Positions 16,720 to 48,914 of a stretch of 64,000 bases of DNA are shown piece by piece. Positions within the stretch are counted from its first letter, which is position 1. The number at the start of each line of letters is the position of its first letter. Source of the DNA: Pirellulales bacterium (GTDB taxonomy: Bacteria; Planctomycetota; Planctomycetia; Pirellulales; PLA5); assembly GCA_040901705.1 (NCBI GenBank), contig JBBDYI010000290.1, positions 18,686 to 82,685 of the forward strand. Direction: 5' to 3'. The translations under genes and the position numbers were made by a program. A model generated the notes under the pieces. It made no database searches. It was not told the DNA's origin and saw only the letters and a list, made by a program, of their open reading frames with translations.

Positions 16720-17164
16720 ACGCAACCAGCGCCGCCACGCCCAAAGCGCAGACAACCAGCGGCCACCGCCAGCTGCGCTTCGCAAGGCCCCGTTCCGGTC
16801 GAAACCAACTGCCAACGCCAATCGCGGCAAGCTTCCTAGTTTCGCAGACGCTCAGGGCAAGTCAAGCGCTTCGGCCGAGCGGTAGTGGTCTGATTAGTGT
16901 GTTGCGGGCCGGACGACGCCTGATTAACGGTGGCCTGGAAGTCCGCCGGCAAATCCAACCCAACATAATTCAATTGAGCACAATGGCGGCCGCGACACAA
17001 ATGGCAAAAAGGATCGGAAGTGGCTCAAATTGCCAGGCGCGCAAGAACAATCGCGCGAATTCCCTGAAAAATGAGCAGTGACATTACGAAAGAAGGCGAG
17101 TGGCTCACGCTTAATTTTAAGGGGATTGCCTCATCGCACCCGCAAGTGTGCCATGAACAATTCC

Positions 17165-17203
17165 TGGCCTAACGGCGTGCGGGTTCGAGTCCCGTCGGGC
17201 AGC
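17165..17203 (+). pseudogene. tRNA 3'-half remnant (T-arm + acceptor 3' strand)
   Basis: gcggg-ttcgagt-cccgt is a canonical T-arm (GGTTCGAGTCC). It is followed by a 7-nt acceptor strand cgggcag and then c. The upstream sequence gives only a poor D arm and anticodon arm, with no U33 or R37. It ends 14 nt from the stop of the convergent DUF4411 gene. Confidence 0.4.
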
Positions 17204-17216
17204 ATTGCGGAAATCG

Positions 17217-17687
17217 CTAAAACGAGAATTGTTCGGCAACAAGCATGTCTCTGGTCGAGATGCACCCTACGCCTAGTCCCAGGCACACGTCTGGAATCTT
17301 CGGGTCATTTTTGCCACCGCTGCCTTCTTCGCATACCACAGTTGCTCCCCAAATCTGAGCGTGGGCAATTAGCCAAGGGTCAGCCCCCGAGCGTCCAGTG
17401 CCCTTAAGTTTGACAATACGACCATAGTACGTGTCTTGCATTATTGCCTTCAGTGCGAGCACAACATCTTCTGTTGTCTCTCGGACAAATTCGCGTCTCT
17501 GCCTAATCCATGCCAACAACGAATCGTCCTGCTGTTCAATTTCTTCATACACCTCCCGAGGAACAATCGCCCGTCCAGATGTCAGCATGTCTGAAAGGAA
17601 CGTCCAAAACTTCGGCGCAAAGATTGGCTGATAGTGCTTCTGCCAGCCGTTGACGAGAACGCCGGTATCGAGGCAGTATTTAGTCAC
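17217..17687 (-). CDS. DUF4411 family protein (PIN-like nuclease fold)
   Basis: 156 aa. The layout MTKYCLDTGVLVN...REVYEEI...GADPWLIAHAQIWGATVVCEE...KIPDVCLGLGV matches my recollection of DUF4411 (PF14367). The start lies 4 nt after the stop of the ImmA/IrrE gene. Confidence 0.78.
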   Translation of the reverse strand: MTKYCLDTGVLVNGWQKHYQPIFAPKFWTFLSDMLTSGRAIVPREVYEEIEQQDDSLLAWIRQRREFVRETTEDVVLALKAIMQDTYYGRIVKLKGTGRSGADPWLIAHAQIWGATVVCEEGSGGKNDPKIPDVCLGLGVGCISTRDMLVAEQFSF

Positions 17688-17691
17688 TGAT

Positions 17692-18849
17692 TTACTCGCC
17701 CACCAACCGTTTTTCGAGGTCAGGCAAGAACTGGCTTTTCATGCTTAGCAGGTCCGACACGTCAGGCCCCGTTATCCTATCTTCTCTGTACGCCGAAACG
17801 ACCGCTTTTCCGAATCGTCTCCCAACGGTGGAAAGAACAATTGTCGCCTGCTTTATTCTGACTTGATTCCGCCTCTTGTCCTTGCGCCATTCTCCTCGCT
17901 GCCTTAATTCGACGACCAGCCGTTCGTAAATGTGGTGATTGATAAATCCATGCTGCAAGAGTTTTCTAGCGATCACTTCTTGGCTTACTCGATACATGGC
18001 CGCCAGAGACGGCAAAGATTGCTCATACTCCCCGGAGCCACGCTTTGCCACTGCAATAAAATCCTCGCTTGGAACCAGCGCCTCTGCGGCAACGGCATTG
18101 CAAAAAACTTCGATCTTCTCATCATCGGTGTTGGCGGTGCTCTCAATTGCGCGATCCGAGATTCCGGATATGTTAAGCATCACATGCGCCATCTCGTGCA
18201 TTAGGGTGAAGATACGCCCACCAAATCGGTCACGATCATTCACCACCACAATTGGCGCGACCTCGTGTGCCAATGCAAAACCACGCATCTCACTGAGCGG
18301 AACCTTGCGGCTCAGAAATACCGAGACGCCAGCGGCTTCGCATTGTGATCGCCAGTAGCGAAAGGCGGATTGTTTATCCGGCAGGGCTTTTTGTTCTTCA
18401 AGACTGACACCCAACAGGTTTCTAAGTCGCTTGCCAACGTCTATTGGGCTTTCCGTGTAGCTGGAGCGTCCAACAAACGGCAACGGCTCACGGCCATGAG
18501 ATTCGAGATATTCGGCGAGCCATTCCTGGCGGCCCTGTGTGATTCGCGTCCAGTAGGCAAGTTCGCGGGATAGCACGCCCCTATCAGGCGACGGTAGCTT
18601 TCGGAAGTCACGAACCGGATGCCACTGAGGCGGATTTGGTAGATAGAATACGGCAGTCGGGAATCGCAAGAACTTCGCCAACGCCCTAAGCTGCGGTAAT
18701 GTAGGGGTCTGCACGCCAAATTCCCAAAACATGACGTCGCGGTCGGCCAGTGCGAGTTTATCGGCCACTTGCTCTACAGTGACTGCGGCTCGCTCACGAC
18801 ACCACACGATCATGGCCGACTCAGCGTGCGAGGGGATTACTTTAGACAT
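17692..18849 (-). CDS. XRE-type HTH fused to an ImmA/IrrE family zinc metallopeptidase (COG2856)
   Basis: 385 aa. N-terminal HTH region (VTVEQVADKLALADRDVMFWEFGVQTPTLPQLRALAKFL) and HExxH site FTLMHEMAHVMLN, as in ImmA/IrrE. Confidence 0.85.
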   Translation of the reverse strand: MSKVIPSHAESAMIVWCRERAAVTVEQVADKLALADRDVMFWEFGVQTPTLPQLRALAKFLRFPTAVFYLPNPPQWHPVRDFRKLPSPDRGVLSRELAYWTRITQGRQEWLAEYLESHGREPLPFVGRSSYTESPIDVGKRLRNLLGVSLEEQKALPDKQSAFRYWRSQCEAAGVSVFLSRKVPLSEMRGFALAHEVAPIVVVNDRDRFGGRIFTLMHEMAHVMLNISGISDRAIESTANTDDEKIEVFCNAVAAEALVPSEDFIAVAKRGSGEYEQSLPSLAAMYRVSQEVIARKLLQHGFINHHIYERLVVELRQRGEWRKDKRRNQVRIKQATIVLSTVGRRFGKAVVSAYREDRITGPDVSDLLSMKSQFLPDLEKRLVGE

Positions 18850-18938
18850 GCGTGAACCCCCGCAATCCAGCCCATGTCCGGGATACTATGAACCCGCTCC
18901 TGCCTTTCCTTGATAGCGACGACTGACTCTCTAGTCCC

Positions 18939-19024
18939 GGAGGGCGGTCCGCGCCTTGGCGGCGCAGCGGTCTTATAAACTGCCATAGGTTCCTCACGGA
19001 AGGGTTCGATTCCCCCGCTCTCCG
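18939..19024 (+). pseudogene. tRNA-like element (86 nt), probably a decayed or non-canonical tRNA
   Basis: 7-9 bp acceptor pairing ggagggcgg / ccgctctcc. Anticodon-like arm gcggt-cttataa-actgc (UAU at the anticodon position). T-loop GGTTCGATTCC, but the T-stem has two A-C mismatches (aaggg/ccccc). The D arm lacks the conserved GG, and the variable region is 16 nt. The 3' end abuts the stop codon of the convergent RHH gene, with CTA in place of CCA. Confidence 0.35.
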
Positions 19025-19216
19025 CTAGCGCCGCTTTGGCGCTTTCTCGGCGGCTTTGTTCAGGCACTCCCGTATCCATTCCGACAGGCTTTTGTCTGCG
19101 GCATAGGCAGCGCTCGCCCACTTGGCCTTGTCGTCGGCTGTCAATCGAATCTGGAGGGTTTCCGGCAACGTTGTGCCCGTCGGTTTCGGCGGTCGTCCCG
19201 AACGCTTCTTTTCCAT
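19025..19216 (-). CDS. Ribbon-helix-helix (CopG/Arc/MetJ-type) DNA-binding protein
   Basis: Start chosen at 19216: MEKKRSGRPPKPTGTTLPETLQIRLTADDKAKWASAAYAADKSLSEWIRECLNKAAEKAPKRR (63 aa). The pattern is beta strand (LQIRLT) plus two helices. Palindromic operators lie immediately upstream. Confidence 0.7.
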   Translation of the reverse strand: MEKKRSGRPPKPTGTTLPETLQIRLTADDKAKWASAAYAADKSLSEWIRECLNKAAEKAPKRR

Positions 19217-19283
19217 GTAATTACAGTAATGACTAAAATCTATACCGTCAACCCCTTGCTTATTGTAATTACGGTAATTACAA
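19216..19283. promoter_or_regulatory. Palindromic operator-like sites upstream of the RHH gene
   Basis: Perfect palindrome tgtaattaca (19216-19225, overlapping the RHH start codon). A 21-bp near-palindrome ttgtaattacggtaattacaa (19263-19283). Both share the GTAATTAC core in an AT-rich spacer. Confidence 0.45.
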
Positions 19284-19286
19284 TAA

Positions 19287-20380
19287 GGTCGTGCAAGAAA
19301 ACCCCGTTGCAGCCGGCAAGCCGCAGCGGGGCGAATCACAACTAGGCTTTCGCCCAATCGGACCCAAGTATCTCGATTGTAGCGAGAGCCGCAACAAAAG
19401 GCGACTCTCCGATGGCAAATGTTCTCCCCCGCGACAAGCAAATCTCGGTTCTCCACCATCTAGTCGAAGGCAACACGCTCCGCAGCACGTCGCGGCTGTC
19501 GGGCGTCGCCCGCAACACGATCACGGCCCTCATGGTCCGGTTCGGCGAGGGCTGCCAGCGACTTCTGGACAGCAAGTTGCGCGGCCTCACGCTCGATCAC
19601 GTCGAGACGGATGAAATCTGGTCCTACGTCGGCAAAAAGCAGGGCCGACTAACCGACGAAGAAAAAGCCGAACGGTCGGATATCGGCGACGTGTACACGT
19701 TCACTTGCCTTGACCAGGAAACGAAATTGATCGCGGCGCACGTCGTCGGCAAGCGGTCTGCCGACAACGCTCGCCGGTTGATGATGCAACTGGCCGGCCG
19801 GCTAAACTTCCCGAATCCGCACGCGGGCGACGACCACGCCTTCGGCACTGGCGGATTCCGGCCGATCATCCAAATTTCGACGGACGGCTGGCCAGGATAC
19901 CCTGAGGCTGTTGACTTGGCTTTTGGTCCCTATGCGCGGTTTGGAACCATCGTGAAGGATTACCGCAACGCCGAGCAACCCGGCCGCTACGCGCCGCCGG
20001 AAATGATAGGGACCGTCCGCCGCGGCATAACCGGGATAGAAACCGCCGACGAATGGTCGATATGCACGTCGCACGTCGAACGGCACAACCTGACGATCCG
20101 CACGTTGATGAAGCGGTTCACGCGGCTCGGCGTGGGGTTCAGCAAGTGCGTCGAAAACCACGCCGCTGCCGTCGCCGGCTTCATCGCGTTCTACAATTTC
20201 GTCTGGCGGACGCGGTATCCCGACGATAGCGGGCGGCCTGGAAAACTGCGGCCGACGGCGGCGATGATGGCGGGGGTGACAAACACGCTGTGGAGTTTCA
20301 CGGACCTGTTCGACGCCGCGATGGCCGTATAGAATTCGACCGGTGAACAAGCTTAGGGCCGGCGGGTTTCTTCTATGACC
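19287..20380 (+). mobile_element. IS1-family insertion sequence (boundaries tentative)
   Basis: Single transposase ORF. Candidate imperfect terminal inverted repeats are ggtcgtgcaagaaaaccccg (19287-19306) and the reverse complement of cgggtttcttctatgacc (20363-20380), which reads ggtcatagaagaaacccg. Both begin with GGT as in IS1. No flanking target-site duplication is visible. Confidence 0.5.
19412..20332 (+). CDS. IS1-family DDE transposase (single fused ORF)
   Basis: 306 aa. N-terminal HTH (NTLRSTSRLSGVARNTITALMVRFGEG). IS1 InsB-type blocks DEIWSYVGKK, ISTDGWPGY and HVERHNLTIRTLMKRFTRLGVGFSKCVENH...FYNF. Confidence 0.8.
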   Translation: MANVLPRDKQISVLHHLVEGNTLRSTSRLSGVARNTITALMVRFGEGCQRLLDSKLRGLTLDHVETDEIWSYVGKKQGRLTDEEKAERSDIGDVYTFTCLDQETKLIAAHVVGKRSADNARRLMMQLAGRLNFPNPHAGDDHAFGTGGFRPIIQISTDGWPGYPEAVDLAFGPYARFGTIVKDYRNAEQPGRYAPPEMIGTVRRGITGIETADEWSICTSHVERHNLTIRTLMKRFTRLGVGFSKCVENHAAAVAGFIAFYNFVWRTRYPDDSGRPGKLRPTAAMMAGVTNTLWSFTDLFDAAMAV

Positions 20381-20587
20381 CGTCGGCCCGCACTTTGCGC
20401 CTTGCCGGACACTTAGGTAGACGTATACGATTCGTTAGTGGACTTAGTACAGAACGGAAGGCTTGTTCACCAAAGCTCTTGCCGCTTCTGGCACGCCAAA
20501 AACCAAACAGAAGATTACTGCCACACGTTGGACTGTGTGTTCAGGGATGTACCTTCCTTGCCTCACGGAGGGCCTGCCTATGGTGAC

Positions 20588-20899
20588 TTAATCATCCTCC
20601 CCATCGCAGAGGTCGCGTTCGGATCGCGTGGCGCGCGGAAACAGAGTTAGCATCATCCAGGATTCAGAGGGATCGCCCTCCATCCAGGCAAGGATAAACT
20701 CTCGACTTGCATCGCGGCACGCCGTTGCAATCCGTTCGCGGTTGTCTGCATGTACCGGCTGCTTAGCTGGCTCGCCGGTGGCAATCAGGTGGTCGATTTG
20801 CGCCAACTCGTAGCCGAGGACGAAGCATTCGTGCGCGCCCAGGGAATCAAGTTCGCCATTGTCGATCCCGAACGATTTGATGAGTCCATATTGTGACAT
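20588..20899 (-). CDS. Hypothetical acidic protein (103 aa), orphan
   Basis: Intact ATG ORF with balanced, protein-like composition (MSQYGLIKSFGIDNGELDSLGAHECFVLGYELAQIDHL...). No motif I can assign. Located in the low-GC island. Confidence 0.5.
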   Translation of the reverse strand: MSQYGLIKSFGIDNGELDSLGAHECFVLGYELAQIDHLIATGEPAKQPVHADNRERIATACRDASREFILAWMEGDPSESWMMLTLFPRATRSERDLCDGEDD

Positions 20900-20926
20900 T
20901 TTTGAAACTCAACTTGAAGGTGATAT

Positions 20927-21094
20927 ATGTCTGTTCCGATTGGTACGACCGCAAAGACCGGCGAAATCTGCCCGGAGAGCGGTGTTTGGCAAGTTGTTGG
21001 GACTCCCAGCACGACGGCCCCGATTGCCAAGGGCAACCGGATGCCGCCGTACAACAACCAAGCTGTAACTTGGAAGTTGACGGCCTACGCTTAG
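20927..21094 (+). CDS. Small protein (55 aa), YjzC-like pattern
   Basis: Not in the track because it is under 60 aa. ATG preceded by GAAGGTGA. MSVPIGTTAKTGEICPESGVWQVVGTPSTTAPIAKGNRMPPYNNQAVTWKLTAYA. The K-x-G-x3-P-x2-G-V-(W/Y)...(G)-x-R-(M/F)-P...V-W pattern recalls B. subtilis YjzC. A strong intrinsic terminator follows 22 nt after the stop. Confidence 0.5.
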   Translation: MSVPIGTTAKTGEICPESGVWQVVGTPSTTAPIAKGNRMPPYNNQAVTWKLTAYA

Positions 21095-21115
21095 TAGGCG
21101 AGTTGTGTGCCAACG

Positions 21116-21148
21116 ATCCCCGCGGGATGGAGCCCGCGGGGATTTTTT
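21116..21148 (+). terminator. Rho-independent terminator
   Basis: Perfect 11-bp stem atccccgcggg / cccgcggggat, loop atggag, then T6 (21143-21148). Confidence 0.85.
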
Positions 21149-21491
21149 GGGCCGGGATCGTCTCAGGAAGTTCTTTCCCAGGCAATGCCAAAGCGTACAA
21201 TGGCCGTACTGGCAGCGATGCCAGCGAGAAGAATTCGAGCCGCCCAGGAATTGAGAAGCCAAGGGCGGCTTTTTCATGCGCTCAATTCTACCGATCCGGT
21301 CGACAACGGGCCACGGCCCGCTTTTTCCTTACTCGATTTCAATTTGAGCCACTATCAAAGGATCACGAGGCAGGTGATAACCAATCTCGGCCGCGGCTTG
21401 CGCCCAGGAGGCTTGCCTGCCTTCTCCGGCGACTGGTACGGATTCTCGTTCTCGGCCATGCTGGCATTGTAACGAACCGGCTGTCCGCCGT

Positions 21492-22004
21492 TCACGCGAC
21501 CGGCTGCGAACGCTCGCCCGCCTGCGACGCCTTGCGCCCCATCGCCAGAACCATTTTGTACTCGCTCGGCCGCACGGGCTGAACCGACAGTCGCGAACCC
21601 TTGCGCAGCAACTCCATCGTGGCCAGCGACTTGACCTCCCGCAATTCGGCCAGCGACACCGGATGCCGAAAGATCTCCAGCAGCCGCAGATCGACCATTT
21701 GCCAGATCGGGTTATCCGGCGACGCCTTCGGATCGTAGTGATGGTCTTCCTTGTCCCACGCCGTGTGGTCGGGATACGCTTCGCGAACCACCAGACACGT
21801 CCCCACCACGGCCGGCGGATTGGCGTTGGAGTGGTAAAACAGCACTTCGTCGCCGAGTTTCATATCGTCGCGAAGATAATTGCGGGCCTGATAATTCCGC
21901 ACGCCGTCCCAGCAAGTCGTCTGCTTCGGGCTGTCGGCCAAGTTGCGAATCGAAAACGACTCCGGTTCCGTTTTGACGAGCCAATAACGCTTCGCTCGGG
22001 GCAT
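21492..22004 (-). CDS. EVE (PUA-like, DUF55) domain protein
   Basis: Start chosen at 22004: MPRAKRYWLVKTEPESFSIRNLADSPKQTTCWDGVRNYQARNYLRDDMKLGDEVLFYHSN..., the typical EVE signature. The upstream part of the track ORF (to 22355) is Arg/Ala-rich filler. Confidence 0.85.
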   Translation of the reverse strand: MPRAKRYWLVKTEPESFSIRNLADSPKQTTCWDGVRNYQARNYLRDDMKLGDEVLFYHSNANPPAVVGTCLVVREAYPDHTAWDKEDHHYDPKASPDNPIWQMVDLRLLEIFRHPVSLAELREVKSLATMELLRKGSRLSVQPVRPSEYKMVLAMGRKASQAGERSQPVA

Positions 22005-35463: not shown

Positions 35464-36654
35464 TCAGGAGTGCTTCCCGACGGTCGTTGCGCGGCGATAT
35501 TCGCCCGGAGTGACTTTCATGCACCGGCGGAAGAAGGCGATCATGTACTCCGAATACGCAAAGCCGGATAGGTTCGCGATTACCGACAAGGTGTACTCCG
35601 TTTCGGTCAGCAATTGCTTGACCCGCTCCAATCGTACTCGATTGATCTCGGCCAACGGCGAACGGCCGAGCCGGCGTTGCATCCGCCGTTCCAGCGTCGT
35701 GCGCGAAACTCCGACGTGCCGCACCACGTCGGCGACGTCGATGCCATCGCTGGCGTGGCTGCGAATGAAACGCAGCGCCGTCGCTACGGCCCGGTCGTCG
35801 AGGGCATAGACGTCGGTCGACGCGCGAACGACCACTCGCAGCGGCGCAACCGGACGCGGCGGGACTGCGTTGCGCTCTCCTTTCATCATCCGCTGTAGAA
35901 GTTCGGCGGCTTGGTAGCCGATCCGTTCGGTGTCTTGTTCGACGCTGGTCAATCTTGGGCCGGCCAGTTCGCAAAGTACTTCGTCGTTGTCGACCCCGAT
36001 CACGGCGACGTCGTCGGGCACGGAGATTTGGTGTTCGCGACAGACGTTCAATACTTGCAGTCCACGAATGTCGTTGCATGCGATGACGCCGACCGGCTTT
36101 GGGAGTCCGCACAGCCACTTCGCCAATTGTTTCTCGTGCGTCAGTCCGGCCGCTTCGATGTCCATCGTCGTTATCGTTGCCACGCCGCGTTGCTGCGGTT
36201 CGTCGTAAACGCATATGGGCAATGCGGCCGCCATAAGCGACTCGGCGAAATATCGTTCGCGCCGTTCGGAATAAACGGCGCCGGCAAAGCCGCAGAACGC
36301 CAGATTGCGAAAGCCGCGCTCGCGCAAATGATCGATCGCCATTTGCGTCACCGCTCGGTCGTCGGTTTCAATGACCGGCGTTCGAGGCAGCGGATACGTC
36401 CCCGTCAAGTCGATTGCCGGCAGCTTCGAACGGGTCAACCGCCGAGCCAGCGCCGGCGTTTCCACACGGGCAATGATGCCATCGCCCGCCCAACGCCGCA
36501 GCCACAGTGGCGCGTTTGCCGAAAGCAGTTGTTCCTGGTGATAGATGGACCAGTTGCCGGCGGTGCGAGCGAAGGCGGCGATACCTCGGAGCACACCGCG
36601 TCCGTATTCACGCGACGACTCGACGAGCAATCCGACTTTGAACGTCTCGGCCAT
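35464..36654 (-). CDS. XylR-type regulator (periplasmic-binding-protein-like sugar domain + AraC HTH)
   Basis: 396 aa. N-terminus FKVGLLVESSREYGRGVLRGIAAF...WSIY, typical of XylR-like regulators. C-terminal AraC HTH ...RVRLERVKQLLTETEYTLSVIANLSGFAYSEYMIAFFRRCMKVTPGEYRR. Confidence 0.85.
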   Translation of the reverse strand: MAETFKVGLLVESSREYGRGVLRGIAAFARTAGNWSIYHQEQLLSANAPLWLRRWAGDGIIARVETPALARRLTRSKLPAIDLTGTYPLPRTPVIETDDRAVTQMAIDHLRERGFRNLAFCGFAGAVYSERRERYFAESLMAAALPICVYDEPQQRGVATITTMDIEAAGLTHEKQLAKWLCGLPKPVGVIACNDIRGLQVLNVCREHQISVPDDVAVIGVDNDEVLCELAGPRLTSVEQDTERIGYQAAELLQRMMKGERNAVPPRPVAPLRVVVRASTDVYALDDRAVATALRFIRSHASDGIDVADVVRHVGVSRTTLERRMQRRLGRSPLAEINRVRLERVKQLLTETEYTLSVIANLSGFAYSEYMIAFFRRCMKVTPGEYRRATTVGKHS

Positions 36655-36914
36655 ATCAGCGAACGGGCCTGCAATCGAAAGTAATGTGAGCGGAAACCTT
36701 ACTCGGCCGGACGGCTATCGGCGCTTCGGTGCAACCGTTTTGTCAATAATCACCAATGGCATGCCGCATTTTCATAGTTTATTTCATGCGAATCCTCAGT
36801 GACAGGATGTCGGCCAGCAAATAGCCTAGACATTGTAGCAGCCTATGCGCATCGGCGACGCGCAACCGCATCGATCGCCTTCGATTCATGCTCAATCCAT
36901 CCGGGAGCGAACTA

Positions 36915-38210
36915 ATGACTGTGAAAACCGCGTTTTTAGCGAGCATGTGTTGGCTCGCGCTAGCCGCGACGCGACCCGCCAGGGCCGTCGAATTTTGGAG
37001 CGTCGATCTCCAGGCGACCGGCAGCACGTTGTTTGGTCAATCGAATCCGCCGCTGACCGCGGCGGGCGCCGACCCGACGTTCAATCTCGGCAACGTCTGG
37101 AACGCCTATACGGTGCCGGCTCACGATTTACCCGCGGCGCTCGTGCCGGCAATCAATCTGGCCGACCGAGATGGTGCGGCGAGCAGCGTGACCTTTGGTA
37201 TTTCCGTTCCGATCGCCGGCTGGGGTGGTGCGGGCGCCGCGGGCGGAGCGAACGATCTGTTTCGCGACTATATCTTCGCGGCAGCAGGCAATTCGCCGGT
37301 CACGGCGGATTTCGTCATCGGCGGCCTGACGCCCGGCGCCAGTTACGACATGATCAACTTCGGTGGAATTGGCCGCGATAGCGCAGTCACCCTCGACTTC
37401 AACGGCAATGGCGACCTGGCCGACGAAACCGGCCGCATCGCTCCGGTCAACAACGGTGCCGCATTTCGCGGCATCATGGCCAGCGCTGCGGGCCAGATCG
37501 TCGGGCGTGTCGCCAACGGCACCGGCGATCCCGAAGGAAACTGGGCGGGATTCCATTTAATGAGCGCTGCGCCGCCTGGAGCGAAGCTGTGGAGCGTCGA
37601 TATCCACGGCGCGGGCAGCGACCTGTTCGGCCAGGACGTGGCCCCACAAAGCATGACCGGCCTCGAAACGCAATACGGCTTGGGCAACGTTTGGAATCAC
37701 GTCGCCGTGCCGGGCTACGACCTCGATCCGGCCGCCGTTTCGTCGCCGCTCGTCGATAGCGAAGGCAATCCGACGGGCGTCGAGTTCAACATTGTCGACG
37801 CGGTGCAAGGCTGGGGCGGAGATCCAGGCATGGGCACCGATCCGCTGCGCCGCGATTATTTGTTCGTGCAGGCCGGACGTTCGCCCGCCAGCGCGGAATG
37901 GACGATCACCGGCCTGACTCCCGGACACACGTATGAGTTGTTCGCGTATAGCGGCGCTGCCCGCGACGTCATGCTCGGCGTGGATCAAACGGGCGAGCAA
38001 TTCAACTTTCGCGGCGGCCACTTGTTCGGTAATGTCGCCGTCGACGGGAGCGGCATGATTTCGGGCCTCGTTTCCAGCGCTGCGGGCGAAGCGAATTGGT
38101 CCGGCTTTCAACTTCGCGATGTGACGCCGATTCCCGAGCCGAGCACGATGGCCCTCGTGCTCGTCGGCGCCGCGGCGACGGCCACGATTGCCCGACGACG
38201 GCGGGTATAA
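36915..38210 (+). CDS. PEP-CTERM-anchored secreted protein containing two copies of an uncharacterised module of about 180 aa
   Basis: Start chosen at 36915 (MTVKTAFLASMCWLALAATRPARA signal peptide). C-terminal sorting signal PIPEPSTMALVLVGAAATATIARRRRV. Two tandem modules; see the repeat features. Confidence 0.82.
   Translation: MTVKTAFLASMCWLALAATRPARAVEFWSVDLQATGSTLFGQSNPPLTAAGADPTFNLGNVWNAYTVPAHDLPAALVPAINLADRDGAASSVTFGISVPIAGWGGAGAAGGANDLFRDYIFAAAGNSPVTADFVIGGLTPGASYDMINFGGIGRDSAVTLDFNGNGDLADETGRIAPVNNGAAFRGIMASAAGQIVGRVANGTGDPEGNWAGFHLMSAAPPGAKLWSVDIHGAGSDLFGQDVAPQSMTGLETQYGLGNVWNHVAVPGYDLDPAAVSSPLVDSEGNPTGVEFNIVDAVQGWGGDPGMGTDPLRRDYLFVQAGRSPASAEWTITGLTPGHTYELFAYSGAARDVMLGVDQTGEQFNFRGGHLFGNVAVDGSGMISGLVSSAAGEANWSGFQLRDVTPIPEPSTMALVLVGAAATATIARRRRV
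36987..37559 (+). repeat. Protein-level repeat module, copy 1
   Basis: FWSVDLQATGSTLFGQ...LGNVWNAY...DLFRDYIFAAAGNSPVTADFVIGGLTPG...GTGDPEGNWAGFHL. Confidence 0.75.
37584..38114 (+). repeat. Protein-level repeat module, copy 2
   Basis: KLWSVDIHGAGSDLFGQ...LGNVWNHV...PLRRDYLFVQAGRSPASAEWTITGLTPG...GEANWSGFQL. Confidence 0.75.
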
Positions 38211-38317
38211 CCGGCTTGCGATGGGCCGTTCGATGCGATTTTTTTCGGATGTCGCGGGGCGAGCGCCGCACGTGAGCGCTCGTCCCTCCTTTTTGTATTG
38301 ATCGAGGAGGATCGGCG

Positions 38318-41300
38318 ATGCTTTGGCTTCAGACATGGAAGACTTTGACCGAGTCGAGAAGAAGTCGCGCGATTGCCGATCGTCGCCGCTCGCGCCGTTT
38401 GTCGCCGGCGACGGTGGAAGCGCTCGAGCCGCGCCTGGTGCTGGATAGCACCGTCGTATTCAACGAGATCATGTATAATCCGGCGGGGGACGATACGGGC
38501 CGGGAATGGATCGAACTGCACAACCAGATGGCCGTCGACATGGACGTCTCGTTGTGGCGCATCGACGGCGCGGTCGAGTACGATTTTCCCGAGGAGACGG
38601 TGATTCCCGGCCACGGCTATCTCGTCGTCGCCGCCGATCCCGATGCGTTCCAGACGGAATACGGCGTCGCTGGCGTGCTGGGGCCGTTTGCCGGTTCGCT
38701 CTCCAATGGCGGCGAAACGCTGGAGCTTTACAACAACTTCAATTCGGCCCGGACGCGGGCACTGCCGCCACCGCCTCCCGCGGCGGACAAGCTGTGGAGC
38801 GTCGATATTCAGGCCGTCGGCGGCGTGATCACGCAACCGAATCCACCGCTCAAGACCGGCGTCGAAGCCAGTTCCGGCTGGGGCGACGTGTGGAACGCCT
38901 TCAACATTGCCGGCCACACCGGAACCACGCTCAATCCGACGCTCGCGCTGGTTAACAGCGCCGGCACGCCCACGGGCGTCACGTTTTCCATTGCCGGCGC
39001 GATCTCCGGTTGGTCGGAAAACGGCGACGGGCTCACCAGCGACTATCTGTTCGTCGCGGCGGGCAACTCGCCGACCACGGCGAACTGGCAAATCACGGGC
39101 CTTGACCTGGCGAAGACGTACAGTTTTTTTCCCTATGGCAGTTCGCTACGCGACATGGGCTGGAACGTCGACCGCGGCGGCGACGGGTCGCTCGCCAACG
39201 ACGCGCCGCTTGTCGTTTCCGCCGCTGGCACATTGGTCGAGGGCGTCCACCCCGATGCGACTGGGAAGATCGTCGGCAGCGTCGCCAATGGCACGGGAGA
39301 CCCGGAGGGAAATTGGGCTGGATTCCAACTCCTGGAAGTCGATCCCACGCCCGGCGGCGCGCCGGACATTGCCCATTTGCCCGGTCCGGGTGGACTCGAC
39401 GGGCGGCGGTTGATGAATTCCGTCAACTACGACGACGGCGACGACTGGCCGATCGAGCCGGACGGCTCCGGCGCGTCGCTCGCGAAGATCGATCCGGACG
39501 CCGGCAGCGCGCAAGCCGAGAACTGGACATTCAGCAACACGGTCGGCGGCACGCCCGGGGTGCGGAACTTCTCCGATGGCCGTCCGCTGCAAGTTTCGCA
39601 GATTTCGGACGCCTCTGGCAACGGCCGCCACGGCGCGCCGTTCGCCCTGGGCACGGTGGCGGAGGGCTTCGAAGGCCGCGCCGGTTCGTTCGACGGGGCC
39701 ACGAGCTACGTCGAAGTGCCGATCGATCTCAATCCAACGGCCAATTCACAAATCACATTTGGCGCTTGGGTTCGTTCCGACACCACTTCGCCGACGCATG
39801 CGATCGTCTCGAACGACGATGGCGGTTGGGATCGTTCGATTGCTATCGGCAGCGGCGTCGCGCCGGTTTCGCCGGGCAACGAGAACGTGTGGAACGCCTT
39901 TAACGTACAAGGGCACAATCTCACTTCCACGAATCCTTCGATGAACCTCGTCGACCGCGACGGCGCGGCGACAAGCGTGAGTTTTTCGATTCTCGGCACG
40001 ATTTCCGGATTCAGCAACGCGCAGAATCCGGCCGCGCGGTTGACGAACGACTATATGTTCGTCAGCGCGGGAAATTCAGCCGCCAACGCCGATTGGACGA
40101 TCGCGGGCCTGGTGTCGCAACGGCAATACGACTTTTATGCCTACGGCGGCATCGCCCGCGACGCTTCGATGCGCGTCGACACGAATGGCGACGGTTCGCT
40201 CGCCGGCGAAACGACGCGGATGGCGCCGGTCAATGGCGGTATCCTGATCGGCGGCGTAACGGCGAGCAACTCGGGGCAGATTCTCGGCAATGTCGGACCC
40301 GGCAGCGGCGGCGAGGGAAACTGGAGTGGTTTTCAACTCGTCGATCGAGTGACCGGGCAGTTGTGGAGCGTCGACATTCAGGCGATCAATGGCCCGCTGT
40401 TCGGACAGCAACCGCCGTTGTTGCAGAGCGGCCCGTTGTCCACCGGCGCGGGCGTCGGGTACTCCGCTTTTGCCGGCGGGCACCAGTTCAACGGCAGTGG
40501 CATTACCGCCGATCCCGCAACGTGGGCGTTCGTCGCCGGAGCGTTCGATCAGACGACAAACAGCATGACGCTGTACGTCGACCGCGACGCATCGACGACG
40601 GCCGACGCCGTACAGGTCTTCACCGACGCGGCCACGGCGTTCGGCACGAGTCTGTTGCCGACGAATATCGGCCGATTGCCGTCGGGGGCGTGGTATTTCG
40701 ATGGTTTGATCGACAACGTGTTTTTCGCCGACGGCGCGCTCAGCGCGGGACAGATTACCGCATTGCGAGACGGCGGCGCGGCGGCCGTTTCGGCATTGGG
40801 CGGCGATCTGCTCGCGTTCTATCCGTTCGAGGACGTCGCGCCGGGCGACACGACGGTCGAATTGCCGGCGCTGGTGATTAACGAATTCGATTCGTCCGAG
40901 GCCGCGCTGTTTCGCGTGGAATTGGTCAACTCGGGCGATACGGCTGTAAATCTCGCCGGCATGGTGCTATCGACCAACGAGACCGGCGCGCCCGACTACT
41001 CGTTTCCCGCGCAAATGCTCGCCGCAGGCGGTCGGATCGTGGTCGACGAAGTGGCGCTTGGTTTCCGGCCGAACGATGGCGATGCGCTGTTCCTGTTCAC
41101 GGCCGGCAAGACGTCGGTCGTCGACGCCGGGCACGTCGACAATTCGCCGCGGGCACGCTATCCCGACGTTACGGGGCCTTGGCTCGAGCCGACGACGATG
41201 ACGCTGGGCGGCGCGAACGTCGTCGACCTCCGCGACGAGATCGCGATCAACGAGATCATGTACCACGGCTATCCGGACCGCGGTACACCGCCCACGCCGG

Positions 41301-44300
41301 CGGAATACGCGACGACGACGCTGCTCGATTGGAACGCGACGTGGCGCTACAACCAGGTTGGCCAATCGGTCGCCGGCGGCCAGCTTCCGACGAATTGGGC
41401 GGCGACTTCGCATCCAGTCGACGGATCGACGTGGCTTTCCGGCAACGGTCTTTTTGCGCTGGAACCCAACGGCACGATCGCAGACATTCGAACGCCGCTC
41501 ACCCTCGGCGGCGGCCGCACGACGTACTATTTCGAGACGGAGTTCACGGTCCCCACGGACGCTGCGGACGGGTTCGAACTGCAAATCGAACATTACATCG
41601 ACGACGGCGCACTTTTCTACCTCAACGGCGTCGAAATCGTCGACCGCGTCAACTTGCCGGCCGCCGGAGTGACGAATGCGACCTTCGCTTTGGCTCAGAT
41701 CGAGGCCGCTGTCGCGACCGTCGTCGTGTCGGCCGACCGCCTGGCCGTAGCGGGCTTTGCCAAGGGGGTGCCGCAGCGGCTGTCGGTCGAAGTGCATCAA
41801 GGTGCGGCGGCGAGCAGCGACGTCGTATTCGGCACGCGCGTTCATACGCGCGTACAATCCGCGCCCGGAACGCCCGGCACGCCGTATGCCGAGAGCAACG
41901 AGGAGTGGATCGAGCTTTACAACCGTTCGGCGACGACGGTCGATTTGACGGGCTGGTCGCTCCGCGGCGGCGTGGACTACGCATTCGTCGGCGGTACGAC
42001 GATCCCGGCCGGCGGCTATCTCGTGGTGTCGAACGACGCCGCGGCGCTGGCGGCCAAGTATCCGGCGATTGCGGGCGAGATCGTCGGGATTTTTTCCGGA
42101 ACGCTGTCGAATTCCGGCGAAACCGTGCGGCTCGAAGACCCGCTGGGCAATCCGGCCGACGAAGTGCGATACTACGATGGCGGGCGGTGGCCCGCCGCGG
42201 CCGATGGCGGCGGATCGTCGCTCGAATTGCGCGATCCCGGCGCGGACAACGCGCAACCGGCCGCGTGGGCGGCCAGCGACGAGTCGGCCGGTACGGCGTG
42301 GCGGACGTACACCTACCGCGGCATCGCCGTGAACGACGGCATCGGCAACGATGTGTTCCGAGAACTGGTGCTCGGCATGTTGGACGCCGGCGAGCTTTTG
42401 TTGGACGACATCAGCGTCGTCGAACGCCCCGGTACGCCGCAGGCGGTTGCCGTCATTCGAAACGGCTCGTTCGAGACGGACGCCCTGGGCAGCGCGGCCA
42501 GCAGTTGGCGGATCATCGGCAACCACTCAGGCACGGTCATCGCCGATCCCACCAACGCCGCGAACAAGGTGTTGCGGCTCGTCGCGACCGGGCCCACGGA
42601 AGACAAACACAATCACGCCGAAACGACGTTCGCGGCGAATCGGCCGATCGCCGTCGGCGCGGAATACGAGATTTCATTCCGCGCGAAATGGATATCGGGT
42701 TCGAACCAACTCAACTCGCGGCTGTATTTCAATTTCTTACAGCAAACGACACTGATCGACGTGTCGCACGATGGCGGCACGCCGGCGGCGCAAAACTCGC
42801 GGTTTGCGGCGAATGTCGGGCCGACATACACCGAGTTCTACCACGGTCCGGTCGTGCCCAAGGCGAACGAGGAGGTGACGGAGTCCGTGGCGGCCGCCGA
42901 CCCGGACGGCGTGGCGTCGATGGCGCTGTTCTACTCGGTCGGCGGCGGCGGGTTTTCGTCGATTGCCATGACGGACGCCGGCGGAGGTCGATATACCGGC
43001 AAGATTCCCGGTCAGGCGGCGGCGAGCGTGGTGCAGTTCTATGTGCAAGGCGCCGATGCGCTCGGCGCGGTCTCGACCTATCCGGCCGACGGGGCGAGTT
43101 CGCGGGCGCTGTACGTCGTCGAGGACGGTCAGGCCGCCGTCGGACAATTGCACAACCTACGCATCGTCATGACGCCGGCGGATCGCGATTTCCTATACCT
43201 GAACACCAACCGCATGAGTAACGCGCACCTCGGCGCGACCGTGATCTACGACGAGCGGGAGGTGTTCTACGACGTCGGCGCGCAGCTAAAAGGCAGCGCC
43301 TTTGGCCGCTTCGCCGGTACGGAAACCGGCTTCAGCGTTCGCTTCAACCCCGACGAATTGTTCCGCGGTGTTCACGAAACGATCAGCATCGAACGGGCCG
43401 GCAACAAGAAGGAATTGCTCGCCAAACACATGTACGGGCGCGCTGGCGGCGGGCTGGTGAGTTTCTACGACGACGTGATCCGCATCGTCGCGCCACGAGC
43501 GAACGAAACCGGCGTCACGCTGCTCTCGATGGCTCGATACAGCGACGTGTTTCTCGATGAGTCCTTCGACAACGGCGGCGAAGGCGCGCTCTACAACATG
43601 GAGTTGCTCTACAACCCCAACGGCACGGTCGACGGGAATCCCGAAAGCCTCAAGCTCAACAATCCATACAACCATACCAACGGTACGGTGGTCATTGCCG
43701 ATCGCGGCGACGACAAAGAGACGTACCGCTGGAACTACCAGATGCGCAACGCCCGCGGCCGCGACGACTATGCACCGCTCATCGAATTGATGCAGGCGTT
43801 CAGTCTTGCCGGCTCAGCGCTCGACGCGGCGACGCAACAGATCATGGACGTCGACCAATGGATGCGGACGTGGGCGATGTTCTCGCTCAACGGCAACGAC
43901 GATCTGTACACCCGCGTCTACGATCACAACTACCGGATGTACGTGCGGCCCGAGGACGGCAAGATCATCGGCATGCCCTGGGATTTGGACCGCGCATTTC
44001 AGATCGCGACCAACGCGCCGCTCTGGGGCGACGAAAACCTCCGCAACGTGATCGAGTTGCCAACGAACAAGCGGCTGTTCTACGGCCACTTGTTCGACAT
44101 TGCGAACACGACGGCGAACGCAGATTATATGACGACGTGGGCGACGCACTTCGCGGCGCTAACCGGCCAGAGCTTTTCTGGAGAATTGGGCTACATCGTC
44201 GCCCGCAGCAATTACGTCCTCGGCCAGCTTCCCGGTGAGTTTTCGTTCGACATCGCGACGGCCGATCCACTCGACGTCGGTGCGGCATCGACGGCCACGC

Positions 44301-45439
44301 TGACCGGACGGGCCTGGATCGACGTCCGCGAGATTCGCGTCGCCGGCAGCGTGTTGCCGCTCGACGTTGCCTGGACCGCCACGCCGCTGGGCACGTCGGC
44401 CGCCGGCCCTTGGTCCGACGGCTGGCAAATGACGATTCCCGTCGATTCGTCCACGGGACTTGTCACGCTCGAAGCCTACGACCACCAAGGCAACCTCGTC
44501 GGAACGGACACGATCACGGTCGCCAGCACCGCGCCGCGGCCGATCGTCGATCAGCTTCGTATCGTCGAACTGATGTATAACCCGCCGGGCAACGGCGATG
44601 GCGAAGAGTTCGTGGAAATCATGAACGTCAGCGCGATGCCGATCGCGAGCCTCGCTGGTGTCCACTTCACCAACGGCCTCGACTTTACGTTCGGCGACGT
44701 ACCGCTGGCGGCGGGTCAGCGGGCGGTGATCGTGCGCGATCTTTCGGCATTCGAAGCCAGGTATGGATCGGGCATCAACGTCGTCGGCGAGTACACCGGT
44801 TCGGCGCTCGACAATTCCGGCGAGCAACTTACGCTCGTCGACTCCGACGGCGCGCTCGTGCAGCAATTTACCTACGACGATACGGGCGAAGGCTGGCATC
44901 CGACGACCGACGGCGAAGGCTACTCGCTCGTCATCATCGATCCGACAGCCGCTACGGCCACTTGGGATCTCGGCGGTTCTTGGCAGCCGAGTTTCAACAT
45001 CGGGGGTTCGCCCGGCGCGGAAGACACGGCCTCGCTCGACGGCGACGTGAATGGGGATCTTCAAGTCGATCTCGTTGACCTGGCGATCGTACAGTCGCAC
45101 ATTGGAACGACGTCGGGCGCAACGCGAGAACTTGGCGATTTGAATGGCGACGGCGCCGTCAATCGCGCGGACGTCGCGATTCTCGCGGCAAATTTCGGAC
45201 GACATTTGGCCAACGCCGCGGCCCCGGCGGCCGTCGTCGCGCGAGCCGCCGACCTTACCCGCCAGCCGACGTCCGGCCAGCAGAACACACTCCGTGCCGA
45301 ACGCCGGGTGAGGCGGGCGAATACTACAACTGTTCCGCTCTCGTCTGCGGCGACCGACCAGGTGCTGGCGGAGTCGACCGACGACCTTCGCCTCGCGATC
45401 GCCCGGCGCACGCGCGTTGTGGGGCGGCTGCCAAGGTAA
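38318..45439 (+). CDS. Giant secreted multidomain protein (2373 aa): lamin-tail domains, repeat modules, LamG, CotH kinase-like domain, dockerin-type repeats
   Basis: N-terminus ...RRLSPATVEALEPRLVL. LTD blocks FNEIMYNPAGDDTGREWIELHN, EEWIELYNRSATTVDLTGWSL and VELMYNPPGNGDGEEFVEIMN. LamG-type blocks GRAGSFDGATSYVEV...FGAWVRSD and WAFVAGAFDQTTNSMTLYVD...WYFDGLIDNVFF. CotH-like region from about 43100 to 44250 (LHNLRIVMTPADRDFLYLN...YNMELLYNPNG). Dockerin-like DVNGDLQVDLVDLAIV...GDLNGDGAVNRADVAILAANFG. Confidence 0.88.
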   Translation: MLWLQTWKTLTESRRSRAIADRRRSRRLSPATVEALEPRLVLDSTVVFNEIMYNPAGDDTGREWIELHNQMAVDMDVSLWRIDGAVEYDFPEETVIPGHGYLVVAADPDAFQTEYGVAGVLGPFAGSLSNGGETLELYNNFNSARTRALPPPPPAADKLWSVDIQAVGGVITQPNPPLKTGVEASSGWGDVWNAFNIAGHTGTTLNPTLALVNSAGTPTGVTFSIAGAISGWSENGDGLTSDYLFVAAGNSPTTANWQITGLDLAKTYSFFPYGSSLRDMGWNVDRGGDGSLANDAPLVVSAAGTLVEGVHPDATGKIVGSVANGTGDPEGNWAGFQLLEVDPTPGGAPDIAHLPGPGGLDGRRLMNSVNYDDGDDWPIEPDGSGASLAKIDPDAGSAQAENWTFSNTVGGTPGVRNFSDGRPLQVSQISDASGNGRHGAPFALGTVAEGFEGRAGSFDGATSYVEVPIDLNPTANSQITFGAWVRSDTTSPTHAIVSNDDGGWDRSIAIGSGVAPVSPGNENVWNAFNVQGHNLTSTNPSMNLVDRDGAATSVSFSILGTISGFSNAQNPAARLTNDYMFVSAGNSAANADWTIAGLVSQRQYDFYAYGGIARDASMRVDTNGDGSLAGETTRMAPVNGGILIGGVTASNSGQILGNVGPGSGGEGNWSGFQLVDRVTGQLWSVDIQAINGPLFGQQPPLLQSGPLSTGAGVGYSAFAGGHQFNGSGITADPATWAFVAGAFDQTTNSMTLYVDRDASTTADAVQVFTDAATAFGTSLLPTNIGRLPSGAWYFDGLIDNVFFADGALSAGQITALRDGGAAAVSALGGDLLAFYPFEDVAPGDTTVELPALVINEFDSSEAALFRVELVNSGDTAVNLAGMVLSTNETGAPDYSFPAQMLAAGGRIVVDEVALGFRPNDGDALFLFTAGKTSVVDAGHVDNSPRARYPDVTGPWLEPTTMTLGGANVVDLRDEIAINEIMYHGYPDRGTPPTPAEYATTTLLDWNATWRYNQVGQSVAGGQLPTNWAATSHPVDGSTWLSGNGLFALEPNGTIADIRTPLTLGGGRTTYYFETEFTVPTDAADGFELQIEHYIDDGALFYLNGVEIVDRVNLPAAGVTNATFALAQIEAAVATVVVSADRLAVAGFAKGVPQRLSVEVHQGAAASSDVVFGTRVHTRVQSAPGTPGTPYAESNEEWIELYNRSATTVDLTGWSLRGGVDYAFVGGTTIPAGGYLVVSNDAAALAAKYPAIAGEIVGIFSGTLSNSGETVRLEDPLGNPADEVRYYDGGRWPAAADGGGSSLELRDPGADNAQPAAWAASDESAGTAWRTYTYRGIAVNDGIGNDVFRELVLGMLDAGELLLDDISVVERPGTPQAVAVIRNGSFETDALGSAASSWRIIGNHSGTVIADPTNAANKVLRLVATGPTEDKHNHAETTFAANRPIAVGAEYEISFRAKWISGSNQLNSRLYFNFLQQTTLIDVSHDGGTPAAQNSRFAANVGPTYTEFYHGPVVPKANEEVTESVAAADPDGVASMALFYSVGGGGFSSIAMTDAGGGRYTGKIPGQAAASVVQFYVQGADALGAVSTYPADGASSRALYVVEDGQAAVGQLHNLRIVMTPADRDFLYLNTNRMSNAHLGATVIYDEREVFYDVGAQLKGSAFGRFAGTETGFSVRFNPDELFRGVHETISIERAGNKKELLAKHMYGRAGGGLVSFYDDVIRIVAPRANETGVTLLSMARYSDVFLDESFDNGGEGALYNMELLYNPNGTVDGNPESLKLNNPYNHTNGTVVIADRGDDKETYRWNYQMRNARGRDDYAPLIELMQAFSLAGSALDAATQQIMDVDQWMRTWAMFSLNGNDDLYTRVYDHNYRMYVRPEDGKIIGMPWDLDRAFQIATNAPLWGDENLRNVIELPTNKRLFYGHLFDIANTTANADYMTTWATHFAALTGQSFSGELGYIVARSNYVLGQLPGEFSFDIATADPLDVGAASTATLTGRAWIDVREIRVAGSVLPLDVAWTATPLGTSAAGPWSDGWQMTIPVDSSTGLVTLEAYDHQGNLVGTDTITVASTAPRPIVDQLRIVELMYNPPGNGDGEEFVEIMNVSAMPIASLAGVHFTNGLDFTFGDVPLAAGQRAVIVRDLSAFEARYGSGINVVGEYTGSALDNSGEQLTLVDSDGALVQQFTYDDTGEGWHPTTDGEGYSLVIIDPTAATATWDLGGSWQPSFNIGGSPGAEDTASLDGDVNGDLQVDLVDLAIVQSHIGTTSGATRELGDLNGDGAVNRADVAILAANFGRHLANAAAPAAVVARAADLTRQPTSGQQNTLRAERRVRRANTTTVPLSSAATDQVLAESTDDLRLAIARRTRVVGRLPR
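38789..39331 (+). repeat. Protein-level repeat module, copy 3 (inside the giant gene)
   Basis: KLWSVDIQAVGGVITQ...WGDVWNAF...LTSDYLFVAAGNSPTTANWQITGL...GTGDPEGNWAGFQL. The DNA around GTGDPEGNWAGF is also similar to 37510-37556. Confidence 0.75.
39878..40453 (+). repeat. Protein-level repeat module, copy 4, register-shifted (starts at the GNVWN block, ends with the LWSVD block of a following unit)
   Basis: NENVWNAF...LTNDYMFVSAGNSAANADWTIAGL...GSGGEGNWSGFQLVD, then RVTGQLWSVDIQAINGPLFGQQPPLLQSG. Embedded between the two halves of a LamG domain. Confidence 0.7.
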
Positions 45440-47462: not shown

Positions 47463-48914
47463 ATGGTGAGCGCGATGACGAGACTCAATGCGACCCACAC
47501 GAGCGAATTTGGCGTCGATCGGCGCACCTTTTTGCGGCGAGCAGCCGGCGGCGCGGCGGCCTGGGGCGTCGGTGGGGCGGCGCTCGATTGGCTGCGGCCC
47601 GGCACCGCGATGGCCCAAGAGCCGGGCGAGCGGCCGCAGCGGCCCGACGGCGTAACGGTTCTCAATCCGCGCGGCCGCGTGCCGCTGAGCTTCATCATCG
47701 ACGACTCGACCTGTTTGGTGAATCTCAACCGTTTCGCGATGCCGCAGTTCGCGGTGGCGACGGGCAATCGCCGCGTTTACAACGACGCGTGGCGAAAGTG
47801 GCCGGCGGAGATACCGGACGACTTCGTCCGCAAGTTCGGCAACTGGTGCGGCGAACACGGCGTGAAGGGGAAGTACAGCATCGTGCCGTATCCGGCGTGC
47901 GTGGGGCGGCTCGATCGGGTGTTGCCGGGCTGGACCGACGCGGAAGTGAAGGCCAGCATCGAACTGGTCCGCACGCTGATGATGCCGAATTGGGACATTC
48001 ACCCGGAGATGATCACGCACACGTGGGCGATCGACACCAAGACGGGCCATCCGTATCCGGAGAAGTCGATGGACTTCGCGGAGAATTGGGGATGGTCGGC
48101 CGGCAAGTCGGCGGACGAGCTTACGGACTACCTTTCCTACGCGCTTACCATTCTCAAGAACGTCGGCCTGACGTGCGAGGGCGTCACGACGCCGGGTGGA
48201 TTCGGCAACCGTTCGCTCGAAGCGCTGTCGAAGGCCACGCTAGCTTCGTGCCGCGACGTGTTCAAGACGGAGATTCCGCATTACTTCCGGCACTTGTACG
48301 ACGAGGGCGAGCGGAGCGTCGCGCCGCGCGTCGAGTACGCCGAAGGTTTGGACGGCGACGATCCGCGGTGCGCAGTGTCGATCATCGGCTGCACCGGCGA
48401 TTGGACCGGCGGCTGGGATTGTTCCGACCGGGGCGACCTCGACCGCTTCATCACGCCGGACCTCAAGAGCGGCCGGTTGGTCGACGTGATCGAGCGGGGC
48501 GAGCCGGCGTGCCTGGTGTGTCACTGGACGGGCATCTACTTCAACGGCGAGGAAGTCGGCTTCAAGATTTTCCAAGAGGTCGTTCGCCGGTTGCACGAGC
48601 GGTACGATCACCTGTCGTGGATGAAGCTCAGCGAGATCGCCCGCTATTGGGCGGCCAAGGAATTGACGGCGATTACCCAGCCCAGGGCCGAAAACGCGCT
48701 CGATCTGAAAGCCCCGTTTGCATGCCCGGCGTTCACGGTGAAGCTTGCCGCGAACGCGGATGCCCGCCCGGCAGTCGGCAACGGCGACAAGACGTTGTCG
48801 CTTAAGGAAGTCGATAAGCCGCTCGCGCTCGAGCCCGGCACGTTCGTTCGCCAGCGCGACGGCATCGTCTGTTGTTTCGACCTGACGAAAGGTGCATCGA
48901 AACTAAGTTGGTAG
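47463..48914 (+). CDS. Tat-signal secreted protein of unknown function
   Basis: 483 aa. Twin-arginine motif DRRTFLRRAAGGAAAWGVGGAAL. The remainder has no motif I can name; a possible carbohydrate-esterase-like fold is speculation only. Confidence 0.55.
   Translation: MVSAMTRLNATHTSEFGVDRRTFLRRAAGGAAAWGVGGAALDWLRPGTAMAQEPGERPQRPDGVTVLNPRGRVPLSFIIDDSTCLVNLNRFAMPQFAVATGNRRVYNDAWRKWPAEIPDDFVRKFGNWCGEHGVKGKYSIVPYPACVGRLDRVLPGWTDAEVKASIELVRTLMMPNWDIHPEMITHTWAIDTKTGHPYPEKSMDFAENWGWSAGKSADELTDYLSYALTILKNVGLTCEGVTTPGGFGNRSLEALSKATLASCRDVFKTEIPHYFRHLYDEGERSVAPRVEYAEGLDGDDPRCAVSIIGCTGDWTGGWDCSDRGDLDRFITPDLKSGRLVDVIERGEPACLVCHWTGIYFNGEEVGFKIFQEVVRRLHERYDHLSWMKLSEIARYWAAKELTAITQPRAENALDLKAPFACPAFTVKLAANADARPAVGNGDKTLSLKEVDKPLALEPGTFVRQRDGIVCCFDLTKGASKLSW

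Follow-up and report, generated by a model that had tools for sequence, protein, structure and literature searches.

A so far unnamed extracellular module, predicted to be a beta-jelly-roll, occurs four times in two adjoining genes of a Pirellulales genome

We have analyzed a 64-kb stretch of DNA (the window) from a metagenome-assembled genome (MAG) of a Pirellulales bacterium (Planctomycetota), in which two adjoining genes on the + strand, p1 and p2, carry four copies of a repeated module of ~185 residues. The module is a real, independently folding extracellular domain, and the four copies at this locus are old paralogues. Judged by profile scans and structure prediction, it is a so far unnamed domain family of known fold class. 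The locus holds a tandem pair of this domain in p1, and a canonical nested copy and a permuted nested copy in p2. With regard to function, we favor the reading that the module binds a ligand outside the cell, probably a glycan, and that it is common to an anchored PEP-CTERM protein and its giant neighbor; the probability of this reading is roughly 0.55. The two genes and the module copies, with positions in nucleotides of the window and in amino acids (aa) of the proteins, are as follows.

36915..38210, + strand: p1, a PEP-CTERM protein; its open reading frame (ORF) opens at 36888 (440 aa), and its signal peptide is MTVKTAFLASMCWLALAATRPARA
38318..45439, + strand: p2, a giant of 2373 aa, with Pfam matches to 4 LTD domains, a split Laminin_G_3 (LamG) domain, CotH and a C-terminal dockerin
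36987..37568, + strand: module copy 1, at about aa 33-227 of p1; its positional orthologue in the database protein P0003 is 71% identical
37578..38120, + strand: module copy 2, without the DGDGSL loop, aa 231-411 of p1; its positional orthologue in P0003 is 79% identical
38783..39343, + strand: module copy 3, aa 156-342 of p2, with canonical strand order and Pro/Gly-rich linkers on both sides
39860..40351, + strand: module copy 4, predicted strands 2-13, aa 515-678 of p2, inside a LamG loop; the hidden Markov model (HMM) of the module matches from model position 32
40352..40453, + strand: module copy 4, displaced strand 1 and the first part of the beta1-beta2 loop (TGQLWSVDIQAINGPLFGQQ...), aa 679-712 of p2

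The four copies are 38-49% identical to each other in pairwise comparison (MAFFT alignment), and BLASTP between pairs of copies puts the identity at 37-48%, with E-values of 4e-29 to 9e-44, far past chance. These values bear out a preliminary description of this DNA, in which a module of about 180 aa had been reported four times in two adjacent genes. The motif blocks listed in that description are all present in both proteins, but the order that the copies were said to share fails in copy 4. Likewise, the tandem pairs that it reported are found in p1, whereas in p2 each copy is nested in another domain. The positional orthologue of each copy elsewhere is 60-87% identical to it, above any identity among the four paralogues, so that the copies must be old and under selection. 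The DNA similarity earlier noted between copies 1 and 3 is real (37 of 45 bases are identical), although its coordinates had been placed 2 nucleotides off. This stretch encodes the peptide VANGTGDPEGNWAGF, which is also found in homologues from other genomes, and the similarity is thus attributed to purifying selection. Recent duplication or gene conversion was considered as its source and rejected, since the copies have closer positional orthologues elsewhere and the peptide is conserved across genomes.

The module of p1 and p2 has no counterpart among the models of Pfam and NCBIfam. Pfam scans of 25 module instances (E<=10) and of 20 distant members found no module family and, at most, sub-threshold fragments of fn3, and the NCBIfam scan of 44 family proteins left the module uncovered, with matches to the PEP-CTERM tail only. 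The earlier statement that the module belongs to no named family is therefore upheld for p1, p2 and their relatives; a confident match of the whole module to Pfam or to a carbohydrate-binding module (CBM) family, named beforehand as the finding that would overturn it, was looked for and not found. A literature search found no paper describing the module, and a search for LTD together with CotH yielded cellulosome inventories only.

A word-indexed search for homologues returned 18 proteins for p1 and 6 for the region of LamG and copy 4, and missed the giant itself. Such a search is too insensitive for a family of this size, and 1.84 billion cluster representatives (clusters at 50% identity) were therefore searched exhaustively with a HMMER profile. 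The module HMM gave 1047 family representatives at E<=1e-3; of these, 328 have E<=1e-10 and 80 have E<=1e-30. A few of the 1047 matches are repeats of an fn3-like motif alone (for example P0087 and P0098), while most representatives come from Planctomycetota and Verrucomicrobiota and are either PEP-CTERM proteins or LTD/CotH giants. The matches in genomes are all in MAGs, from Planctomycetota (Pirellulales, Phycisphaerae and Brocadiia), many Verrucomicrobiota, Omnitrophota and Binatia. We examined 163 proteins, namely 161 retrieved ones together with p1 and p2. In 153 of them the match extends over about two thirds of the module model or more, and 89 have a PEP-CTERM-like tail; among short members scanned with Pfam, 8 of 10 have a PEP-CTERM match. 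Their lengths vary widely (59 have fewer than 300 aa, and 30 reach 900 aa or more), and some family proteins contain tandem arrays of 2-5 module copies. Three modules are present in one protein, P0073 (788 aa), in which three separate stretches match the PEP-CTERM model; it resembles three PEP-CTERM genes, each with one module, that were read as a single ORF, or else a true fusion. A family model can be built directly from two alignments of this analysis (A1 and A6).

AlphaFold2 (AF2), given an alignment of 25 sequences, predicts for the module an all-beta sandwich of 13 strands that is free of helices, with a predicted local distance difference test (pLDDT) score of 91 and a predicted template-modeling (pTM) score of 0.89; a beta-sandwich had also been proposed in the preliminary description. 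The top Foldseek matches of this model in the PDB are CBM61 (E 2e-4), domain III of Cry1Ac, a family-2 carbohydrate esterase and CBM22, followed by CBM35, CBM4, CBM6 and CBM36, with E-values of 2e-4 to 7e-3, probabilities up to 1.0 and template-modeling (TM) scores of 0.23-0.47. The nearest solved structures are thus CBMs, in line with the carbohydrate-binding type suggested earlier, but the matches are weak (TM <=0.47). The predicted structure looks most like the beta-jelly-roll, galactose-binding-domain-like class, a likeness that does not amount to membership in a CBM family.

The most conserved residues across 168 domains are D8 (85%), W37 (96%), N38 (98%), L56, D58, G61, D87 (91%), Y88, G106, L107, Y113, R123, D130, G161, G165, E175, W178, G180 and Q182. 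The polar and aromatic residues among these (D8, W37, N38, D58, D87, Y88, R123, D130, E175 and W178) could form a conserved Ca2+ site or sugar site. The sole sequence match in the PDB is a 40-residue fn3-like motif, ITGLxPGxxYxxxxY, at module positions 104-143. The pattern W.I.GL.PG..Y.....Y in the module resembles the E-F hairpin of fn3, and the profile matches fibronectin 1fnh with E 5e-7, but the match spans ~20% of the module, which is twice the size of fn3. The Pfam fn3 model matches the module at profile positions of about 43-75 with 18-23 bits, short of the cutoff of 25. Membership in fn3 was rejected, since the match is to a local motif and there is no full-length match to the ~85-aa profile.

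The association of the two genes is not peculiar to the window. The module is found inside an LTD/CotH giant at 15 of 26 genome loci, and in the window and at loci L007, L009, L010, L014, L027, L028, L029 and L031 the gene directly before a module-bearing LTD/CotH giant encodes another module protein. At locus L018 a module protein is also found upstream, and the giant downstream of it has no module match. In three of the verrucomicrobial proteins upstream of giants (L009:3366-5543, L018:4630-6798 and L007:1653-5231) we observed a four-part build, with an unannotated domain at the N-terminus, long Ca-binding runs of thrombospondin-type-3-like DxDxDG repeats, one module, and a C-terminal domain of ~90 aa that replaces PEP-CTERM. 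At L025:5992-10744, in a Verrucomicrobiae MAG, the gene with module, LTD and CotH is split up into numerous short ORFs that overlap, which probably reflects an indel-rich assembly or a pseudogene. Genes for a GH2 glycosidase and a sulfatase follow the pair on the opposite strand at L031:17225-19808 (the locus of P0021), the only locus at which genes of polysaccharide degradation were seen nearby.

We infer ligand binding, with a glycan as the probable ligand, from the predicted fold, the conserved residues and the companions of the module. These companions include LamG, dockerin, the thrombospondin-type-3-like Ca-binding repeats, and a weak Pfam match to CBM_4_9 in p2, which is below cutoff and lies at aa 1378-1466, outside the module copies. 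On this reading the module would give the cell-anchored p1 and the giant p2 the same binding specificity, and the target might be, for example, the cell's own exopolysaccharide or a polysaccharide in the environment. In the Pirellulales lineage the pair would probably be controlled by the sugar-responsive regulator of XylR type that is encoded beside it:

35464..36654, - strand: XylR-type regulator gene, divergent from p1, with Pfam matches to PBP1_XylR, Peripla_BP_3 and an AraC-type helix-turn-helix

The preliminary description had the two genes lying directly downstream of this regulator; it is in fact on the minus strand and is transcribed divergently. The divergent regulator is kept at the orthologous locus L027 and on the contig of P0005. 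Several points weigh against a glycan-binding role. The regulator is absent at more distant loci, so that the link is limited to close orthologues, and neither a glycoside hydrolase gene nor a polysaccharide gene is a consistent neighbor. The likeness to CBMs is weak, with TM-scores of 0.30-0.41 (normalized to the query) and <=0.47 (to the target) and a root-mean-square deviation of 4-10 A, and no sequence link to any CBM was found when the profiles of A1 and A6 were searched against the PDB, or in Pfam. Finally, jelly-roll domains serve in protein-protein binding as well.

An alternative that we regard as rather doubtful is that the module is a protein-protein docking device, in which the copies of p1 pair with those of p2, or with its dockerin, and tether the secreted giant to the cell surface in the manner of cohesin and dockerin. 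The presence of the same module in adjacent genes, with a pairing kept across distant lineages of Planctomycetota and Verrucomicrobiota, agrees with such docking, as does the fact that p2 has a dockerin but neither a membrane anchor nor a PEP-CTERM tail, while p1 is anchored; cohesins, moreover, are also beta-jelly-rolls. However, no cohesin is found in the top 50 Foldseek matches, and some proteins contain both a module and a dockerin (P0013). In addition, there are many PEP-CTERM members with a single module for which no LTD/CotH gene was seen within ~6 kb on each side (L006, L008, L019, L021, L022, L024 and L030).

A role as a passive structural spacer, a stalk without a ligand of its own comparable to the Ig or fn3 repeats of surface proteins, is unlikely. 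The local tyrosine-corner motif of fn3 type and the tandem arrays would suit a spacer, but near-invariant polar and aromatic residues such as W37, N38, D87 and D8 are not expected of one. Moreover, spacers are not commonly inserted into loops of other domains, and the permuted insertion in p2 is kept across orthologues.

We consider improbable, as it stands, a more ambitious proposal: the module may be the recognition element of a surface-assembly system specific to Planctomycetes-Verrucomicrobia-Chlamydiae (PVC) bacteria, in which the modules of a PEP-CTERM-anchored protein and those grafted into the LTD and LamG domains of the giant pair with each other, either directly or by way of a glycan that both recognize. 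If this were true, a giant CotH-kinase protein would be fixed on the cell surface by a functional analogue of cohesin-dockerin made from a new domain, and the canonical, nested and permuted forms in one locus would be a natural snapshot of permutation by duplication.

The nested arrangement of the two copies in p2 was deduced from matches to the host domains on both sides of each copy, which are given here.

38447..38755, + strand: LTD1, part preceding the insertion, aa 44-146, matching positions 6-97 of 109 of the Pfam LTD profile
39407..39589, + strand: LTD1, part following the insertion (LMNSVNYDDGDDWP...GTPGVRNF), recognized by BLASTP across the junction
39692..39856, + strand: N-terminal half of Laminin_G_3, aa 459-513, which alone matches profile positions 1-46 of 151
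40454..40762, + strand: C-terminal half of Laminin_G_3, aa 713-815, which alone matches profile positions 69-150

The Pfam LTD model stops short of the junction in LTD1. When aa 147-363 are deleted, BLASTP carries the alignment of LTD1 unbroken over the junction, both against LTD3 (E 1e-31 at 40% identity) and against LTD4 (E 2e-20). Copy 3 is absent from the orthologue P0045 and from the giant of L027, in which this LTD is intact. By these alignments copy 3 is a domain insertion that sits in a hairpin of LTD1.

In the case of copy 4, the two halves of Laminin_G_3 give one match to positions 1-150 of 151 (E 3e-15) when they are joined in silico, and LamG relatives without an interruption (P0165 and P0022) put the insertion site at the loop FDRxLxI..RG|G..YSAF. 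These sequence tests place copy 4 within a loop of Laminin_G_3. Its own order is rotated: the module HMM matches p2 from model position 32 at aa 518-676, and then with model positions 2-29 at aa 680-706. BLASTP against copy 1 likewise gives swapped high-scoring segment pairs, in which residues 37-193 of copy 1 correspond to 9-161 of copy 4, and 3-28 of copy 1 to 167-191 of copy 4 (E 5e-6). The block LWSVDI...LFGQ (aa 679-712) thus follows the block GNWSGFQL, and the N-terminus of copy 4 is without strand 1. In an AF2 model of aa 425-830 of p2 the core of the module has a pLDDT of 85-98, and the displaced LWSVDIQAI is predicted to be a strand (pLDDT 75-89) five residues past the last strand. 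Relatives with LamG only were left out of the alignment for this model, as MAFFT placed them on module columns. The LamG part of the model is poor (pLDDT <50 over most of its length) because the alignment is shallow, and the nested architecture is accordingly based on the sequence tests and not on the model. Taken together, the alignments and the predicted structure indicate that copy 4 is a circular permutant, with strand 1 placed after the last strand.

The permuted order is kept in an uninterrupted frame in five p2 orthologues, namely P0020, P0045 and the giants of loci L027, L001 and L031, which come from independent assemblies and are 53-87% identical. That the permutation is an artefact, either an assembly or frameshift error in a MAG or what is left of a degenerate fifth copy without a structural role, is highly improbable: the displaced segment alone scores a mere 10.8-24.7 bits, but the order of LamG N-terminal half, strands 2-13, LWSVDIQ segment and LamG C-terminal half recurs in the open frames of these five orthologues, which argues against an assembly artefact, and both the missing strand at the N-terminus and the strand predicted right behind the last one speak against an artefact. 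The break point of the permutant falls in the long beta1-beta2 loop, a less confident part of the canonical model (pLDDT 72-78). This position would agree with descent from a tandem pair, and the order of the permutant is as expected if a stretch of such a pair had been taken with an offset of one strand, so that strands 2-13 come from one copy and strand 1 from the next. Tandem pairs such as those of p1 and P0019 would be the obvious intermediates for such a permutation by duplication.

Comparable cases are familiar from other jelly-roll proteins and their hosts, such as concanavalin A relative to other legume lectins, the permuted GH16 beta-glucanase of Fibrobacter, and the PA14 domain in a GH3 beta-glucosidase. 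These resemble the present case in the rotated order of jelly-roll strands or in the placement of a binding domain in a loop of its host. Here, however, a single protein has both the canonical and the permuted form of the family, and a tandem pair, the possible evolutionary intermediate, is found in the adjacent gene. The top structural neighbors of the AF2 model (CBM61, 22, 35, 6, 4/9 and 36, and Cry domain III) are, like the predicted fold of the module, all-beta sandwiches of similar size. CBMs are also extracellular and modular, and the module is likewise combined with dockerin and LamG. The differences are that CBMs have ~130-160 aa, while the module has ~185 aa and 13 predicted strands, matches them with TM <0.5, and has no catalytic partner among carbohydrate-active enzymes. 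PEP-CTERM proteins are said to have been described as exosortase-sorted surface proteins by Haft et al. in 2006; named families of PEP-CTERM proteins match through the tail alone, far under their cutoffs, and leave the passenger domain uncovered. To our knowledge there is no cellulosome in PVC bacteria. The proteins Cthe_0239 and CseP of Clostridium thermocellum, with LTD, CotH and dockerin, are cellulosome components with unknown roles (PMC6083626). They share these three blocks with p2, but p2 is twice as large and has the new module inside LTD and LamG.

Planctomycetota and Verrucomicrobiota have many giant surface proteins and PEP-CTERM proteins with unannotated passenger domains, and the module would annotate a recurrent piece of them. 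Both phyla are known as polysaccharide degraders, for which the module is a candidate glycan-binding domain. The conserved gene pair, a small anchored protein followed by an LTD/CotH giant, links two gene classes and can be tested genetically. We regard the module as a solid new domain family; it is no new kind of system, and no major concept is changed by it.

The remaining features of p1 and p2 are the following.

38127..38207, + strand: PEP-CTERM sorting signal of p1 (PEPSTMALVLVGAAATATIARRRRV), above the Pfam and TIGRFAM cutoffs
43646..44068, + strand: CotH domain of p2, PF08757, E 2e-7, 31.3 bits (cutoff 23.8)
45041..45187, + strand: type I dockerin of p2, PF00404, E 8e-9

The true start of p1 is probably the ATG at 36915. 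It has a Shine-Dalgarno-like GGGAG 8 nucleotides upstream, and it gives p1 a length equal to that of the identical 431-aa database protein P0001, a MAG entry recorded as 'PEP-CTERM sorting domain-containing protein [Pirellulales bacterium]'. The N-terminus of p1 is a Sec-type signal peptide ending in ARA|VE, and its tail scores above the cutoffs for PEP-CTERM with both PF07589 (24.0 bits, cutoff 20.7) and TIGR02595 (22.6 bits, cutoff 16). At the start of p2 (aa 1-47, 38318-38460) no classical hydrophobic signal peptide is seen. Directly before the first LTD there is a motif, E(A/P)LEPR(L/Y)VLDS, that is kept in all p2 orthologues (P0018, P0020, P0045 and L027:11427-) and may be a lineage-specific signal for export or processing. 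A predictive scan for promoters and terminators in 36500-38500 found nothing, and hence no terminator-like site between p1 and p2. The neighboring genes in the window encode pyruvate carboxylase, MOSC, HtrA and HDOD proteins. An ORF of 483 aa at 47463-48914 (+ strand), for which a Pfam scan was empty at E<=1e-3, begins with a twin-arginine-like N-terminus (RRTFLRRAAGGAAAWG...) and may encode an uncharacterized Tat-exported protein. The G+C content at 16001-22000 is 0.57-0.585, against 0.59-0.67 across the remainder of the window.

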